Virus genome (UHGV): UHGV-0084588
Direction: 5' to 3' (one strand)
From: a virus
DNA length: 64,000 nt
Under the pieces are notes generated by a model. The model saw nothing but the letters and a program-made list of their open reading frames with translations. It did no database searches and was not told where the DNA came from. Positions within the stretch are counted from its first letter, which is position 1. Each line of letters opens with the position of its first letter. The translations under genes were made by a program, and so were the position numbers. Shown piece by piece: positions 54,891 to 60,387 of the stretch.

Positions 54891-54921
54891 TACACCACAC
54901 TCCGTCTTTATGGAGGTGGGT

Positions 54922-57426
54922 ATGCTAAAAGTTGAACGCATTATACTCAAAGGTTTTACGGGGATGGGATTACATGAAATTGAAACTTTCGATTTCACTA
55001 TCCAGTCTCCAACAACAATTATCCTGGGTGGGAACGGTTGCGGGAAAACCAGTCTACTGTCTGTATTCTTACCCTTAGCACCGGCTAAAACTGAATTCAG
55101 AGACGGCGGTTCTTACACGAACTACTGTTTAGTTGGTGATCAACGGTATCGATTCAAAGTTGCCCGTAAAGGTAACTCTTTGGTTTGCGATATTGAAAAT
55201 CTGACCACGGGAGCAAAGATCGTCGAGCAAGGTAATGCGAAGGTCTACAACTCCCGTGTTGAAGAAATCACGGGTATTACGAAAGAAATTAAAGAACTAT
55301 TAAATGGTGATGTTTTGTTAACCGATGCGGGAACCGAATTACGCCGTAAATGGTTTTACCGTTTAAGTACCTCTGATCTCACATACGCGTTAGGGTTTTA
55401 TCAACGTTTGCGTAAAAACCTTACCGCCTTAAATGGGGGTATTGAAATCACCAGTCGCAAGATTGCCGAATTACGGACGCGTGTTATTGAGAACGAGGAA
55501 GAACGACAACAATTAGCAACGAGATTAAAAGGTCTGGAATCGGATTTACGTGAACTGAACCGAGAAATCGAACAGTTGCCAGGATTAAATCGTGCTGTCA
55601 CGATCGAAACAATCCAAGCGTTATTAAACGGTTTGGGTCCAACCATCGACGCAATATTACAACATCGTGGTGGGTTGCCTACTGATGAACAGATACTGGT
55701 CGCCCGACAAAATGAAGCGACAGCCCGCGAAGCCGTCGTTTCTACCGAAACAGAGGTATCGATGTTGAATAAAGATTTATCGCTATTGATGGATGAGTCA
55801 ACACGACAAGACTACCTGATGCGGAATCACGAAGGTCTCAAGAATACACTGGCACGTTTACGTGAGTTACTTACCAAGTGGGACACCGAACATCTCTTTC
55901 CAGGTTTATTTAACGATAACGTTAATTTAGACCAACTTCGTGCGGCTACCGATGCGCGTGTTTGGGGACAACGGTTGGGGACAACACTGGACGCTATTCA
56001 TTCAACCGAGAAACTCAATGTTTTGGAAGAACGTCTTCTGGTGATGGATCAAAAAACCGCAGGATTACGGGATAGACTCCAGCGAGTGGAGAACGTTTTA
56101 CAGAATTTAAATCACGAGCGTAACCACTACTTAGAAACGGCAGAAGTGGATTGTCCGCAGTGTCGGTTTAAGTTTCGGCCAGGTGTTACGCGTTCTTTAC
56201 CTGAACTCGAGTCATCGATTCGTGGACAACAACAGCAGCGGACGGAACTGCAAACGCAGTTAGAGACTTTATTACGCGATCGTGTTGAATTAGAATCTGA
56301 TGTAACTTATATGCGGCAGGTTCGTGAGATTGTACTGACGTATTCAAAAGACCCTGTATTGAGCATGTTCTTTAAGCGTTTGCAAGAACGTAACGTTTTC
56401 ACAGAGTCTCGCGAGCAGTTCGGGAGTCTATGCGCAGCGTTTGACGGTGAGTTGTACTCTGCTATTGAGTACCATGAAACCCGACAACGGTTAGTGAAAG
56501 CGGAAAAAGAATGGCAGGATGCCGTGGCGGCCGTTGGTAACGTCGATGGTGCTTTACAACAAAAGATCGCCTTCCAACAGTCACGGTTAGGTAAAGCCAC
56601 AGAGATGCTCTCAATGCGTCGTAGAGAGCACGAACTGGCTAACACGACACTTACCTATCTAGTGAATGTTAAACGTGCTGTAGATGATTTCAGTGCGTTA
56701 TTCGAACGGTTAGAGAGTGATGTTAAGGTTACTTTGACAAATACGGTCGTCGAGGAGCTCTTACGAGTGCGGGAAGGGAAGCTGGATGCTTTTACAACTG
56801 CACGCGAACGTTATCGTCAGATGGAAAACGAATTGAATCAGCTCAACAGTTTGGAGCGCGAACTTACAGACTTACAAGCCCAACAGTTCAATAACAAACT
56901 GATGATTCAAGCCTTCTCGCCAGAAAAGGGTGTACTTAGAAAGTATTTTTACAACGCTATCGTTAGAATCACAGAGTTAATGACGCGTTATATCGAACAG
57001 GTCTGGACGTACCCCATGCGCGTTATGCCCTGTGATCTCACTGACGGTGATTTGGATTATACTTTTCCTGTCCAGCTAAAAACGCACCCTGAGCCTGTTC
57101 CTGACGTGCGTAAAGGGTCTAAGGCACAGCGTGCTATATTTAATCTGATGTTCAGACTGACTGCGTACAAAGCGTTGAAGTTGCATCAGTTTCCGTTGCT
57201 TTTGGATGAGCCTTCGGAAGGCATGGACGAGGAGCACCGTAATAACCTGGTCGGCTTTATTAAAACGTTAGCAAACTCGGGAGAATTTTCACAGCTGTTG
57301 GTAGTCTCCCACGAAGCCGAGGTTCATTCTAAACTTAATGAAGCATCGTACTGTGTCATCGAACCGGAAGGAGTGACATTGCCTGCGGTGTATAACGAAG
57401 GAGTAAAAATTGTTTATGCAAACTGA
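54922..57426 (+). CDS. SMC/Rad50/RecN-like ABC-type ATPase with long coiled-coil
   Basis: Start at the ATG at 54922 (GGAGGTGGG RBS). N-terminal Walker A ILGGNGCGKTSLLSVF; about 550 aa of Glu/Leu/Arg/Gln-rich coiled-coil with a central CPQC hook-like motif; C-terminal Walker B LLLDEPSEGMD and VVSHEAEV. Confidence 0.65.
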   Translation: MLKVERIILKGFTGMGLHEIETFDFTIQSPTTIILGGNGCGKTSLLSVFLPLAPAKTEFRDGGSYTNYCLVGDQRYRFKVARKGNSLVCDIENLTTGAKIVEQGNAKVYNSRVEEITGITKEIKELLNGDVLLTDAGTELRRKWFYRLSTSDLTYALGFYQRLRKNLTALNGGIEITSRKIAELRTRVIENEEERQQLATRLKGLESDLRELNREIEQLPGLNRAVTIETIQALLNGLGPTIDAILQHRGGLPTDEQILVARQNEATAREAVVSTETEVSMLNKDLSLLMDESTRQDYLMRNHEGLKNTLARLRELLTKWDTEHLFPGLFNDNVNLDQLRAATDARVWGQRLGTTLDAIHSTEKLNVLEERLLVMDQKTAGLRDRLQRVENVLQNLNHERNHYLETAEVDCPQCRFKFRPGVTRSLPELESSIRGQQQQRTELQTQLETLLRDRVELESDVTYMRQVREIVLTYSKDPVLSMFFKRLQERNVFTESREQFGSLCAAFDGELYSAIEYHETRQRLVKAEKEWQDAVAAVGNVDGALQQKIAFQQSRLGKATEMLSMRRREHELANTTLTYLVNVKRAVDDFSALFERLESDVKVTLTNTVVEELLRVREGKLDAFTTARERYRQMENELNQLNSLERELTDLQAQQFNNKLMIQAFSPEKGVLRKYFYNAIVRITELMTRYIEQVWTYPMRVMPCDLTDGDLDYTFPVQLKTHPEPVPDVRKGSKAQRAIFNLMFRLTAYKALKLHQFPLLLDEPSEGMDEEHRNNLVGFIKTLANSGEFSQLLVVSHEAEVHSKLNEASYCVIEPEGVTLPAVYNEGVKIVYAN

Positions 57427-57595
57427 TTGGTTCCGTCGTTTTATGGACGCGGCGGGGTTTGGTTTCATGTCCATTCTAGCGGTTCTTTATGTCATGTTTT
57501 GCGTGGTGATGATTTTATGGGTAGTTTCATCTTATCTGATTAAACTATCGTGGGGTTCAATTTGGCGTCAACGTGAATGCGAATGGCGGAATTAG
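57410..57595 (+). CDS. small membrane protein
   Basis: 61 aa with a hydrophobic core (FGFMSILAVLYVMFCVVMILWVVSSYLI); TTG at 57410 or ATG at 57416 as start; overlaps the end of the ATPase gene. Confidence 0.45.
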   Translation: MFMQTDWFRRFMDAAGFGFMSILAVLYVMFCVVMILWVVSSYLIKLSWGSIWRQRECEWRN

Positions 57596-57606
57596 GAGAA
57601 GGGAAT

Positions 57607-57705
57607 ATGGTTGAAGGGGTTCTGTTAACACTTGGTGCGATGTGGTTAATCGGTAAAGGTTTAAACTTGCTGGTTAAACAACACAGATGGGCGTTTGAAG
57701 ATTAA
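57607..57705 (+). CDS. small membrane peptide (32 aa)
   Basis: AGGAGAAGGG RBS then ATG; MVEGVLLTLGAMWLIGKGLNLLVKQHRWAFED; under 60 aa, so not in the ORF track. Confidence 0.35.
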   Translation: MVEGVLLTLGAMWLIGKGLNLLVKQHRWAFED

Positions 57706-57762
57706 ACGCCCAAATAATCCGGAAAATACCCTCCGGCGTGAGGGTATTACTAGGAGCAGAAA

Positions 57763-57891
57763 ATGACCTCGATAAACACTACGAATGTAGCGATATCCGC
57801 ATTATACGATGCGGAACTTTCATGGGGTGGATTAATAATCACCACGGCCATATTAGCCGCAGCGGCATTCGTCATCGCGCGTTGGTTTTAA
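57763..57891 (+). CDS. small membrane peptide (42 aa)
   Basis: TAGGAGCAG RBS then ATG; MTSINTTNVAISALYDAELSWGGLIITTAILAAAAFVIARWF; preferred over the overlapping 57738..57941 track ORF, which has no RBS. Confidence 0.35.
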   Translation: MTSINTTNVAISALYDAELSWGGLIITTAILAAAAFVIARWF

Positions 57892-57922
57892 TTTTACTTT
57901 TTTGCGTCTCTAAGGTTTGCAA

Positions 57923-58366
57923 ATGGAAATTTATTTGTTGAACGCATCTTCTAAAGTCGGCGAACGACAAGCTGCCGATTTACTCAAACTACACTACCGT
58001 TACTTGGACCACCAGGCTACATTACTAAAAATCAAAACGTCGGTACCGAAATTAAAAGCTCGACAACTGATCGAAGGTAACTGCATAGTTCTGGTGTATC
58101 AGGATGATGTCGCGGTAGGATACTGTAGTTATCGGAATCGTAACGGTTCACTTAAGATACGTTCGGTATACGTGCTCCCAGACTATCGTCAGCGGGGTGT
58201 AATGAAAGAGATTTTCAAAGCAATTGCCGCCGATGAAGTTTTCGGTGAAATTGTTACTGGCATGTATGCGAAATGTAAAGAAGCAAAAGAGTATTTCATC
58301 CGACGCGGTTATCAGGCGGTTTACTCACACGATCGTGAGTGGGTCGATTTTAGCAAAACATTCTAA
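57923..58366 (+). CDS. GNAT-family acetyltransferase-like protein
   Basis: SVYVLPDYRQRGVMKEIFKAI resembles GNAT motif A (acetyl-CoA binding, Q/R-x-x-G-x-G/A); 148 aa from the ATG at 57923. Confidence 0.45.
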   Translation: MEIYLLNASSKVGERQAADLLKLHYRYLDHQATLLKIKTSVPKLKARQLIEGNCIVLVYQDDVAVGYCSYRNRNGSLKIRSVYVLPDYRQRGVMKEIFKAIAADEVFGEIVTGMYAKCKEAKEYFIRRGYQAVYSHDREWVDFSKTF

Positions 58367-58432
58367 AACAATAAAAGCTCTCTTGGCGTACCTCACTATG
58401 AGTGTGAGAAATTTACGTCAGGAGAGCTAATT

Positions 58433-58678
58433 ATGTTAAAATCGTACGGAGTGGGTGGTTTGGATACGAGTATTTGTTGGAAAGAATACGAACGTGCAAA
58501 AGCGTTCTTACAACATCCCAATGTAGGGACAATAGGTAAGGTCTGTTTCGGCAAACCTACGTTGACAGCTTGTATCCAAGGGGCTTTAGGAACGTTGCCA
58601 CCCGAAACACATTTCGAGCCTGAGGAGAATACGAATGTTCACAGAGAACCCATCAATTTACGGCATACCGTTGAATGA
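58433..58678 (+). CDS. hypothetical protein
   Basis: 81-aa ORF; GGAGAG RBS. Confidence 0.5.
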   Translation: MLKSYGVGGLDTSICWKEYERAKAFLQHPNVGTIGKVCFGKPTLTACIQGALGTLPPETHFEPEENTNVHREPINLRHTVE

Positions 58679-59003
58679 AATTGACATTCTACAAATTTGT
58701 TATCAGTGCGACGACTTTGGTAACACGCAGGTAACAGAGCTAGTTAAGCTTTTAGGTTACTTACCTGAAATCGAGCTACCTTTTGTTAAACCCAGCTTGG
58801 TTCGTCGTGCATCGTGTCGCGAAGCTTATTTGTTGTGGAAACACAATATTTCAGTAGAGAAGGTCTGGGACCGCATGAACGATCATCAGTTCCGTGAACA
58901 GGTTGTGCACACGCTCAATTTGGCACTGACTATGCAACGGCTGGGCTTACAACACGAAGGTTTAGAAGCGGCGGTCAAACAATGGATTACAAAAAATCGC
59001 TAA
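58635..59003 (+). CDS. hypothetical protein
   Basis: 122-aa ORF; GAGGAG RBS; overlaps the upstream gene. Confidence 0.55.
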   Translation: MFTENPSIYGIPLNEIDILQICYQCDDFGNTQVTELVKLLGYLPEIELPFVKPSLVRRASCREAYLLWKHNISVEKVWDRMNDHQFREQVVHTLNLALTMQRLGLQHEGLEAAVKQWITKNR

Positions 59004-59090: not shown

Positions 59091-59588
59091 ATGTTAACGG
59101 TACGTAAAGAATCTGAAATTGGTAACGATCTTTTTAATGCGCCCGAAGACTATAAAGTCGTTACCATTAACTGTGTAGGAGCAATGGGTCGCGGTATTGC
59201 GCTGGCGTGCCGTGAACGCTACCCCAACCTTTATCAAGATTACCGTAAGCGGTGTCGCGAAGACGAAATTAAGATTGGAAGTGTTTACGTTTACCCTGAT
59301 GAAAAGTGCATCTTGCTCCCCACGAAAACACATTGGCGTTTAAAGTCCCAGGTTTCTTATGTTACTGCGGGCATTACCGCATTAGCAGATTGTATTGAAG
59401 AACTGGATACCAGCGTTGCTATCCCTCCACTGGGAATGGCAAATGGGTGGTTAGATTCCTGGGAAAGACAAGAAATCTTCTTGTGGCTTTACAAAAAACT
59501 TGAACCGAGGAGGCAACGCTACACGTTATACTTACCCGATAAGCTGTACCGAGAAGCAGAGTCATTAATTCCAAACTCTTTTAAATAG
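59091..59588 (+). CDS. macrodomain protein (TARG1/OARD1-like ADP-ribose hydrolase)
   Basis: From the ATG at 59091: GNDLFNAPEDYKVVTINCVGAMGRGIALACRERY...AIPPLGMANGWLDSWERQ parallels human TARG1 ([34 protein letters not shown]...SMPRIGCGLDRLQWENV) as recalled; no clear RBS, so the start is uncertain. Confidence 0.55.
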   Translation: MLTVRKESEIGNDLFNAPEDYKVVTINCVGAMGRGIALACRERYPNLYQDYRKRCREDEIKIGSVYVYPDEKCILLPTKTHWRLKSQVSYVTAGITALADCIEELDTSVAIPPLGMANGWLDSWERQEIFLWLYKKLEPRRQRYTLYLPDKLYREAESLIPNSFK

Positions 59589-59688
59589 ATATTATCATTA
59601 GGGCACACAACAAAGGAGTATTAGCTGTCCGCGCCGTCATTTCGTCTTACGGAATACGGAAATGTATAAATCCAACTGGAGAAACAAA

Positions 59689-60387
59689 ATGTTTCGTATC
59701 TTCTTTCTTTTACTGGTAACACTTTTCGCGTTTAACGCACAGGCGTCAACGTCAACGCCGCAAACTAAACATCAGCGTGAATTTACACAAATCCAACATC
59801 GGTTCGAAAAGGTCAGTCCGTTAATTGTGGAAATCTCACGAAAGCAAGGCGTTGATCCTAAGCTGATGATTACGCTGATTTATCGCGAATCGCGTTTTGA
59901 TCCCAAGGCTTACAACAAAAGCACACGAGCGCACAGCCTAGTACAGATGCTTCCAAGTACCAAGCGCAATCTGCTAAAGCTTTATGGAAAAGAATTAGGT
60001 CTTAGTCAGAACGCTGATTTGTATAATCCGCGTAACGCTGTTTTGCTGGCTACCGCGTATGTTAAACATCTTGAGAAGGGGTTAACCAAACGACTCAAAC
60101 GCAAGCCCACCATGGCTGAAGTTGCGTTAGCTTACCACTGGGGTGAAAGTGGCGCTCACACGCGAATCAAAAGCAAATCTCGAGCAGCACAACGAGAAAT
60201 GGCAGGCTTTATGAAAGACGCCGCGTTCTATAGCGCGAAAATCGATGTGCCTGTTGTTGTGGGCTCGGCCCCACGTCAGCTTGCGTTTGCGAAGAAAACA
60301 CCACGTCAGATTCAATTGGCGGAAGTTAGTAAAATTTGGGATACGATAAACACGAGTTTTCCAATCAATAGAGGAGTTACCCTTTGA
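59689..60387 (+). CDS. secreted lytic transglycosylase (SLT domain)
   Basis: Start at the ATG at 59689: signal peptide MFRIFFLLLVTLFAFNAQA, then ESRFDPKAYNKSTRAHSLVQMLPST matching the SLT catalytic motif (E-S...GLMQ-x-MP-x-T). Confidence 0.65.
   Translation: MFRIFFLLLVTLFAFNAQASTSTPQTKHQREFTQIQHRFEKVSPLIVEISRKQGVDPKLMITLIYRESRFDPKAYNKSTRAHSLVQMLPSTKRNLLKLYGKELGLSQNADLYNPRNAVLLATAYVKHLEKGLTKRLKRKPTMAEVALAYHWGESGAHTRIKSKSRAAQREMAGFMKDAAFYSAKIDVPVVVGSAPRQLAFAKKTPRQIQLAEVSKIWDTINTSFPINRGVTL

Follow-up and report, generated by a model that had tools for sequence, protein, structure and literature searches.

Which neighbour does a small acetyltransferase-like protein belong with in a phage genome, and what might it acylate? 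These questions are raised by a stretch of 64,000 nucleotides from the virus genome UHGV-0084588 (hereafter the window), in which the open reading frame (ORF) at positions 57923-58366 had been described in a preliminary way as a GNAT-like acetyltransferase lying upstream of a macrodomain gene. Judged by its sequence, this ORF is a real GNAT-fold gene, far beyond chance, and the gene tightly linked to it is not the macrodomain gene; it is a short gene resembling the N-terminus of EF-Tu. New here is the conserved arrangement of the GNAT gene, an RNA hairpin and this EF-Tu mimic.

Identification of the GNAT gene

The coding sequence and its ribosome-binding site, the latter read from the sequence, are as follows.
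57912-57915, plus strand: Shine-Dalgarno AAGG of the GNAT gene, 7 nt ahead of the ATG
57923-58366, plus strand: coding sequence of the GNAT-fold N-acetyltransferase, 147 amino acids plus stop (ATG at 57923, stop codon TAA at 58364-58366)

An alternative TTG start at 57917 would add two amino acids, and the orthologs favour the ATG. When the protein was scanned against Pfam, three GNAT models exceeded their curated gathering cutoffs, namely Acetyltransf_1 (PF00583, 33.2 bits against 20.7), Acetyltransf_7 (PF13508, 32.9 bits against 27) and Acetyltransf_10 (PF13673, 27.0 bits against 23.6). PHROG 3810, "acetyltransferase", matched with an E value of 1e-25 from residue 2 to residue 145, covering positions 3-151 of the 155 in the profile. 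A single-sequence AF2 model was poor (pLDDT 46.8) and was set aside, and an alignment-based model was used; the topology is that of the GNAT fold, beta1-alpha1-alpha2-beta2-beta3-beta4-alpha3-beta5-alpha4-beta6-beta7. The preliminary description had named a profile search and the presence of the fold among the ways to judge its call, and the call holds up on both, as well as on orthologs in 49 phage records. Its ORF of about 148 residues is real, though the exact length is 147. A search of the rest of the 64-kb window found no GNAT paralog.

The gene is under strong purifying selection: dN/dS was 0.05 against an 86%-identical relative (L008) and, with the comparison limited to the first 103 codons, 0.04 against one that is 98% identical. 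In the latter (L003:8001-8474, from the metagenomic contig k141_659670 of ENA ERZ27287186, 224,967 bp), a 34-bp deletion at window positions ~58231-58264 shifts the frame after residue ~103 and gives a 157-amino-acid product without beta5-beta7, which reflects either natural inactivation or an assembly error. The SPN3US papers searched made no mention of gp191 and gp192, the SPN3US orthologs of the GNAT and the mimic, as virion or essential proteins, and we consider the GNAT gene to be a non-structural accessory gene.

A conserved EF-Tu-like gene and a stem-loop downstream

Immediately past the GNAT stop codon lie the following elements.
58376-58428, plus strand: RNA stem-loop in the spacer between the GNAT and mimic genes, minimum free energy -30.8 kcal/mol, z -7.5
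58376-58390, plus strand: 5' arm of the stem-loop, AGCUCUCUUGGCGUA
58392-58408, plus strand: apical hairpin of the stem-loop
58414-58428, plus strand: 3' arm of the stem-loop, UACGUCAGGAGAGCU, including the Shine-Dalgarno AGGAG of the mimic gene at 58420-58424
58433-58678, plus strand: 81-amino-acid mimic or derivative of the EF-Tu N-terminus (beta1, degenerate P-loop, alpha1), ortholog of SPN3US gp192

The linkage of the two genes was seen from both sides. Among 19 loci found through the GNAT, 17 have the mimic directly downstream, the exceptions being two contigs from a single distant lineage; searching with the mimic gave 10 jumbo-phage loci, each with the GNAT directly upstream. The mimic in the window (HPNVGTIGKVCFGKPTLTACI) carries the pattern NVGTIG-x-V...TLTA-x-I, matching residues ~11-31 of E. 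coli EF-Tu, and in both proteins [F/Y]-E-R-x-K precedes the matched stretch. When a profile of nine phage mimic sequences was searched against the PDB, 59 of the top 60 matches were EF-Tu chains (E 1e-7 to 6e-5), aligned over EF-Tu residues ~8-36, and the profile also matched EF-Tu fragments in a database of 5.8 billion proteins. These alignments indicate that the product mimics or derives from the EF-Tu N-terminus and is not a GTPase, because the P-loop is degenerate and the orthologs are only 69-112 amino acids long. Outside SPN3US-like jumbo phages the family does not occur. No similarity of the mimic gene to E. coli genomes was found at the DNA level, so any capture of tuf would be ancient, and our literature search on the gene found no paper discussing it.

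A few records label mimic orthologs "putative GTPase" or "elongation factor". At three Wellingtonvirus-like loci (L012:8564-8975, L013:3343-3754 and L019:2017-2452), the mimic profile matches two overlapping frames, with the N-terminal part in one frame and the NVGTIG part in another, which could be due to frameshifting, an internal start or decay of the 5' part.

The spacer between the two genes measures 66-70 nt, and up to ~80 nt in two Wellingtonvirus-like loci. The same stem-loop architecture was also predicted in 11 other loci from five genera (z -4.9 to -8.4). In the 12-sequence alignment, the 13 pairs of the base stem were 95% paired, compared with 38-53% in slid-partner controls, and four pairs showed compensatory changes on both sides, as seen in the arms AGCUCUCUU/AGGAGAGCU of the window, AGCACUCCU/AGGAGUGCU of SPN3US and AGCUUCCCU/AGGGGAAGCU of L012. 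The predicted stem-loop buries the ribosome-binding site of the mimic. It may serve translational coupling, RNase III processing or attenuation; the first of these is a marginal prospect, with the stem beginning 4-11 nt past the GNAT stop. An Rfam search with the stem-loop returned no family. A repeated promoter or terminator element was considered and rejected, since the sequence is unique in the window and has no T-run.

Distribution of the family and previous annotation

A megablast search of the 3-kb region against INPHARED (50,697 phage records) gave no match, so the phage is without a close cultured relative. At the protein level, full-length GNAT orthologs with 28-40% identity were found in 49 jumbo-phage records, from phages of Salmonella, Erwinia, Escherichia and Proteus and from the genera Seoulvirus/SPN3US, Erskinevirus, Machinavirus and Wellingtonvirus. 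They include SPN3US gp191 (SPN3US_0191, AEP84024/YP_009153485), SEGD1 gp196 (AMR59843.1), Caitlin gp201 (YP_009292274) and Stratton gp213. These four share 34-40% full-length identity and the invariant residues with the window GNAT and, like it, are encoded between SbcC and the macrodomain and SLT genes, with the EF-Tu-like gene and the hairpin downstream. The window protein differs in lacking a C-terminal tail (147 residues against 159-163 in the orthologs) and in retaining Gly92, where SPN3US gp191 has Lys.

An exhaustive search of 1.84 billion representatives returned only 16 at E<=1e-3, essentially all from jumbo-phage contigs, and among these representatives there were no bacterial relatives of the family closer than about 30% identity; a word-indexed homolog search yielded close relatives only. 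As far as such sequence searches indicate, the GNAT is a member of a small subfamily that occurs solely in jumbo phages of enterobacteria. Four NCBI proteins, ECD1607172.1, EDU0148450.1, EFW7964734.1 and EFY2245167.1, match the window protein at 100% identity; PGAP named them "GNAT family N-acetyltransferase [Salmonella enterica ...]", and they lie on phage contigs of ~225 kb in Salmonella isolate assemblies. In all, the identical GNAT was seen on 112 contigs, the longest of 227 kb. A proposed Chimalliviridae genus, "Bapsvirus", comprises genomes of ~220-226 kb recovered among the assemblies of Salmonella, E. coli and Shigella isolates; it is syntenic with Seoulvirus but distant from it (PMC12768965, Nat Microbiol 2025). 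The window appears to come from a "Bapsvirus"-type SPN3US-like jumbo phage.

Across Seoulvirus, Erskinevirus, Machinavirus, Wellingtonvirus and the clade of the window, the gene order is conserved: an SbcC/SMC ATPase, tiny ORFs, the GNAT, 2-7 small genes, the macrodomain gene and an SLT transglycosylase. In distant relatives, two to three tandem GNAT genes occupy the locus (L010:6983-8522, L011:1736-3275, L012:7614-8483, L013:2393-3262 and L019:995-1938); the extra copies are remote paralogs that match the family profile at E values of 1e-15 to 1e-19 and have the canonical form of motif A, RxxGxA/G. The identification of the GNAT is correct but already public, through the NCBI name, the jumbo-phage annotations and a mention by Iyer et al. 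Their 2021 study cited AMR59843.1, the SEGD1 ortholog, as RimI-like and closest to the ribosomal-protein GNATs, and suggested that it might hijack the translation apparatus (PMC7824862).

Proposed function

Taking the evidence as a whole, we lean, at slightly better than even confidence, towards a minimal single-domain acyltransferase with an accessory role, whose acceptor would most likely be a protein amine linked to translation. As in other GNATs, the beta4-alpha3 loop and the splay between beta4 and beta5 would provide the binding site for acetyl-CoA or a different acyl-CoA. The acceptor, a primary amine, would occupy a cleft lined by alpha1-alpha2, beta4/beta5 and the beta6-beta7 loop and receive the acyl group directly. 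More speculatively, this amine, N-terminal or on a lysine, may belong to a protein tied to the translation machinery. The GNAT would be expressed as a fixed unit with the EF-Tu mimic, the ribosome-binding site of which lies in the hairpin right past the GNAT stop.

A translation-linked acceptor is suggested because the Foldseek list is headed by protein acetyltransferases and the structural neighbours are rich in protein N-acetyltransferases, because Iyer et al. put the family beside the ribosomal-protein GNATs, and because the GNAT forms a fixed unit with the EF-Tu mimic and the hairpin that buries its ribosome-binding site. It is further suggested by the N-termini of the mimic orthologs, all of which start with Met-Leu or Met-Phe. 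This is the N-terminus class taken by Naa30, Naa50 and Naa60; the conservation of the dipeptide may instead reflect a constraint at the nucleotide level. RimI, the bS18-alanine N-alpha-acetyltransferase, also acetylates the N-terminus of EF-Tu, an activity reported in E. coli (PMC9079301); the window GNAT differs from it in that its motif A ends in Met.

A more specific version of this proposal treats the GNAT and the EF-Tu mimic as a two-gene module in its own right, with expression linked through the hairpin, in which the GNAT would acetylate host EF-Tu or the mimic, or the mimic would act as a decoy or specificity factor, with the outcome that translation is reprogrammed or an EF-Tu-directed defence is blunted. 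We regard this version as tentative and, as formulated, unlikely; the literature searched described no such phage module. Small phage enzymes of the GNAT superfamily have varied targets, with AcrVA5 acting on Cas12a and Mom of phage Mu on DNA. Rac of LUZ19/phiKMV is a phage GNAT that targets the alpha subunit of RNA polymerase, and Iyer et al. proposed as a general model that jumbo-phage GNATs modify host or defence macromolecules (PMC7824862). The window GNAT resembles Rac, AcrVA5 and Mom as a small phage enzyme of the superfamily, in a comparison by description only.

Motifs and subfamily tests

Several observations weigh against the proposed protein acetyltransferase, and they concern its residues, its scores and its dispensability. 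The first group begins with the region read in the preliminary description as a plausible acetyl-CoA-binding motif.
58184-58216, plus strand: motif A region YRQRGVMKEIF, residues 88-98, at the beta4-alpha3 junction (R89-Q-R-G92-V-M94)

The region sits where GNAT motif A belongs, but its form is non-canonical, R-x-x-G-x-Met in place of Q/R-x-x-G-x-G/A. Among 24 family members R89 is invariant, and position 94, canonically Gly or Ala, is Met in 23. Position 92 is Gly in 16 of the 24 and Lys or Tyr in the other 8, with Lys in Seoulvirus (RRRKTM in SPN3US) and Tyr in Wellingtonvirus-like members (RRKYVM). These deviations mean that acetyl-CoA binding is not assured across all lineages. In many GNATs the motif-B tyrosine serves as the general acid; at this position the window GNAT has Phe125, as aligned by HMMER with SSAT2, Ard1 and YjcF and by hhalign with RimI. 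A structural study of Salmonella RimI reportedly identified Glu103 and Tyr115 as catalytic, and these residues align to Gly113 and Phe125 (hhalign/HMMER), so that catalysis, if any, must use other residues. Phe125 alone does not imply a dead enzyme because the tandem paralogs with the canonical RxxGxA/G loop also have Phe at this position. The residues invariant or nearly so among the 24 members are L23, H24, P42, N53, G66, Y67, R71, R80, R89, M94, F125 and W140, and on conservation His24, Tyr67, Arg71, Arg80 and Trp140 are candidates for substrate binding or catalysis.

To the same side belong the low score against the RimI equivalog model TIGR01575 (17.4 bits, cutoff 86.4) and the structural neighbours, which are indiscriminate (Z 14.7 to 11.4 over 60 matches), with polyamine, antibiotic and metabolite GNATs interspersed. 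The translation link would rest on gene adjacency and a weak similarity to RimI, the frameshifted relative described above suggests that the GNAT is dispensable at least in some settings, and the literature searched held no biochemistry for any member of the subfamily.

Subfamily models placed the protein in none of the known groups. The best NCBIfam match was ArsN2 (NF040501), at 28.7 bits against a cutoff of 125; AAC(6') (NF000140) gave 13.7 bits against 270, across 24 residues of motif A only; and no SpeG model was among the NCBIfam matches. Membership of RimI, AAC(6') and ArsN was rejected, all scores being under the curated cutoffs. The orthologs in the Erwinia phage records KX397373, KX397366, KX397368, KX397371 and KX397370 are named "putative ribosomal-protein-alanine acetyltransferase", a name that we regard as an over-annotation because of the RimI score and because the RimI catalytic residues are missing family-wide. 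The protein shares 9-18% identity with Naa50, Naa30, Naa60, NatD/Naa40 and Ard1/Naa10; auxiliary subunits are absent, and the catalytic residues of the eukaryotic and archaeal N-acetyltransferases are not demonstrably conserved in it. A PADLOC scan of the GNAT gave no match, and its identity as a defence system was rejected on this ground. A type II toxin-antitoxin toxin (TacT/AtaT/KacT) was likewise rejected, as the neighbours carry no DUF1778 or ribbon-helix-helix antitoxin domains and PADLOC found none; no TacT or AtaT chains were among the top structural matches. None of the functions listed earlier for this protein (modification of host proteins, inactivation of toxins, acetylation of aminoglycosides) could be assigned to it.

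The sole GNATs of this jumbo-phage group to have been assayed are the candidate spermidine acetyltransferases of phiEaH2, Caitlin and SPN3US studied by Li et al. 2023, of which the SpeG-like proteins of phiEaH2 (YP_007237670) and Caitlin (YP_009292176) were active and that of SPN3US (YP_009153389) was inactive (PMC9992855). Identity of the window GNAT with these proteins was rejected, as they have other accessions and lie at other loci. They also have bacterial homologs of about 73% identity, whereas the window family has none.

Alternative explanations

Since the structural scores could not tell GNATs that modify proteins from those that modify small molecules, rival readings were kept open. 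The protein could be a small-molecule N-acetyltransferase with a polyamine, an antibiotic such as an aminoglycoside, a toxic analogue of an amino acid or a signal derived from a nucleotide as its substrate, so as to detoxify a compound or deplete a metabolite. Small-molecule substrates are common among GNATs of its size, ArsN2 heads the NCBIfam matches with AAC(6') and ArsN1 also listed, and PaiA, SSAT2 and the tabtoxin-resistance and phosphinothricin acetyltransferases occur among the sequence and structure matches; the three invariant arginines would suit a carboxylate or phosphate ligand, and related jumbo phages encode an active spermidine acetyltransferase (PMC9992855). What makes this reading improbable in our estimate is that every subfamily score, ArsN2 and AAC(6') included, falls far under its cutoff, that the assayed phage enzymes are the product of a different gene, and that bacterial relatives of the family reach at most about 30% identity.

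The residue changes bear on a different possibility, that the fold is catalytically dead or binds CoA only and serves as a binding module or scaffold, for instance as a partner of the EF-Tu-like protein. Both motif A glycines are replaceable (G92 by Lys or Tyr, with Met at position 94), the general-acid Tyr is replaced by Phe and no Glu stands at the RimI base position, and Chimallin of the same phage family offers a precedent in its inactive GNAT-like domain (PMC9365700). Yet R89 is invariant and the clade of the window keeps R-x-x-G, the pyrophosphate is bound by backbone amides, so that side-chain changes need not abolish binding, and Phe stands at motif B even in those adjacent paralogs whose loop is canonical; the purifying selection on the gene is compatible with either reading. 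We judge an inactive protein to be distinctly unlikely. Very improbable, in our view, is a target in aminoacyl-tRNA, whereby a TacT/AtaT-like enzyme would acetylate the aminoacyl amine, or an aminoacyl-tRNA-dependent transferase would be at work, and the EF-Tu-like neighbour would reflect this link. That neighbour imitates the carrier of aminoacyl-tRNA, the invariant Arg71, Arg80 and Arg89 could contact RNA phosphates, and a weak PDB sequence match (E 0.25) was to an aminoacyl-tRNA-dependent peptide synthase; the toxin models and structures treated above gave this reading no match. The preferred reading remains an acyltransferase acting on a translation-linked protein amine.

Macrodomain, small ORFs and flanking genes

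The remaining genes of the block are listed below.
54910-57426, plus strand: SbcC/SMC-like ATPase, the upstream core anchor
57410-57595, 57577-57705 and 57763-57891, plus strand: small hydrophobic ORFs of 61, 42 and 42 amino acids between SbcC and the GNAT
58635-59003, plus strand: 122-amino-acid protein (phrog_11720), conserved in relatives
59091-59588, plus strand: stand-alone DarG-like macrodomain of 165 amino acids (Pfam Macro 26.8 bits, cutoff 22)
59662-60387, plus strand: SLT-domain transglycosylase, the downstream anchor

The macrodomain gene and the tiny membrane peptides noted earlier near the GNAT were both found, at 59091-59588 and 57410-57891. The macrodomain matched the NCBIfam model antitoxin_DarG (NF048014) at 2.7e-36 over the macro part only, falling short of the equivalog cutoff since it has no C-terminal DarT-binding half; the match to PADLOC DarG was at 1.8e-37. 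By these matches it is probably an ADP-ribosyl glycohydrolase, and as a DarG-type macrodomain that stands alone in a lytic phage it is a plausible candidate anti-DarT factor. The SbcC/SMC-like ATPase is the ortholog of SPN3US gp186, which is essential (PMC5105663). The set of tiny ORFs after SbcC is variable but present in all relatives, in numbers that differ between genera.

The idea of a host-interaction island fared unevenly. In its favour, the macrodomain is DarG-like and plausibly counters defence, and the block between SbcC and SLT is plastic; against it, 2-7 variable genes part the GNAT from the macrodomain in relatives, and the hydrophobic ORFs trail SbcC everywhere. Nothing pointed to cooperation between the GNAT and the macrodomain. 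The stretch from SbcC to SLT looks like an accessory, conflict-related block.

Two further observations concern the layout of this block. The 122-amino-acid ORF overlaps the mimic ORF by 44 nt (58635-58678) in a different frame, as it does in L003. Two strong adjacent hairpins stand past the second tiny ORF, at 57688-57712 and 57725-57750 on the plus strand, with arms GGGCGTTT...AAACGCCC and ATACCCTC...GAGGGTAT and no T-run on that strand; the 77-nt stretch containing both (57681-57757) folds at -31.2 kcal/mol and is among the most stable in the 64 kb.

Biological meaning

The GNAT call alone carries little weight, as the identical protein is already so named and the family is in print. The protein is a conserved, strongly selected putative enzyme from jumbo phages that form a nucleus and infect Salmonella, Erwinia and E. 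coli. Some of these phages are phage-therapy candidates, and they persist unnoticed in isolate assemblies. The DarG-like macrodomain is a separate and easily testable anti-DarT candidate. The pairing of the GNAT with a mimic of the first ~45 residues of EF-Tu and with a covarying, switch-like hairpin provides a testable hypothesis on how these phages may make contact with EF-Tu.
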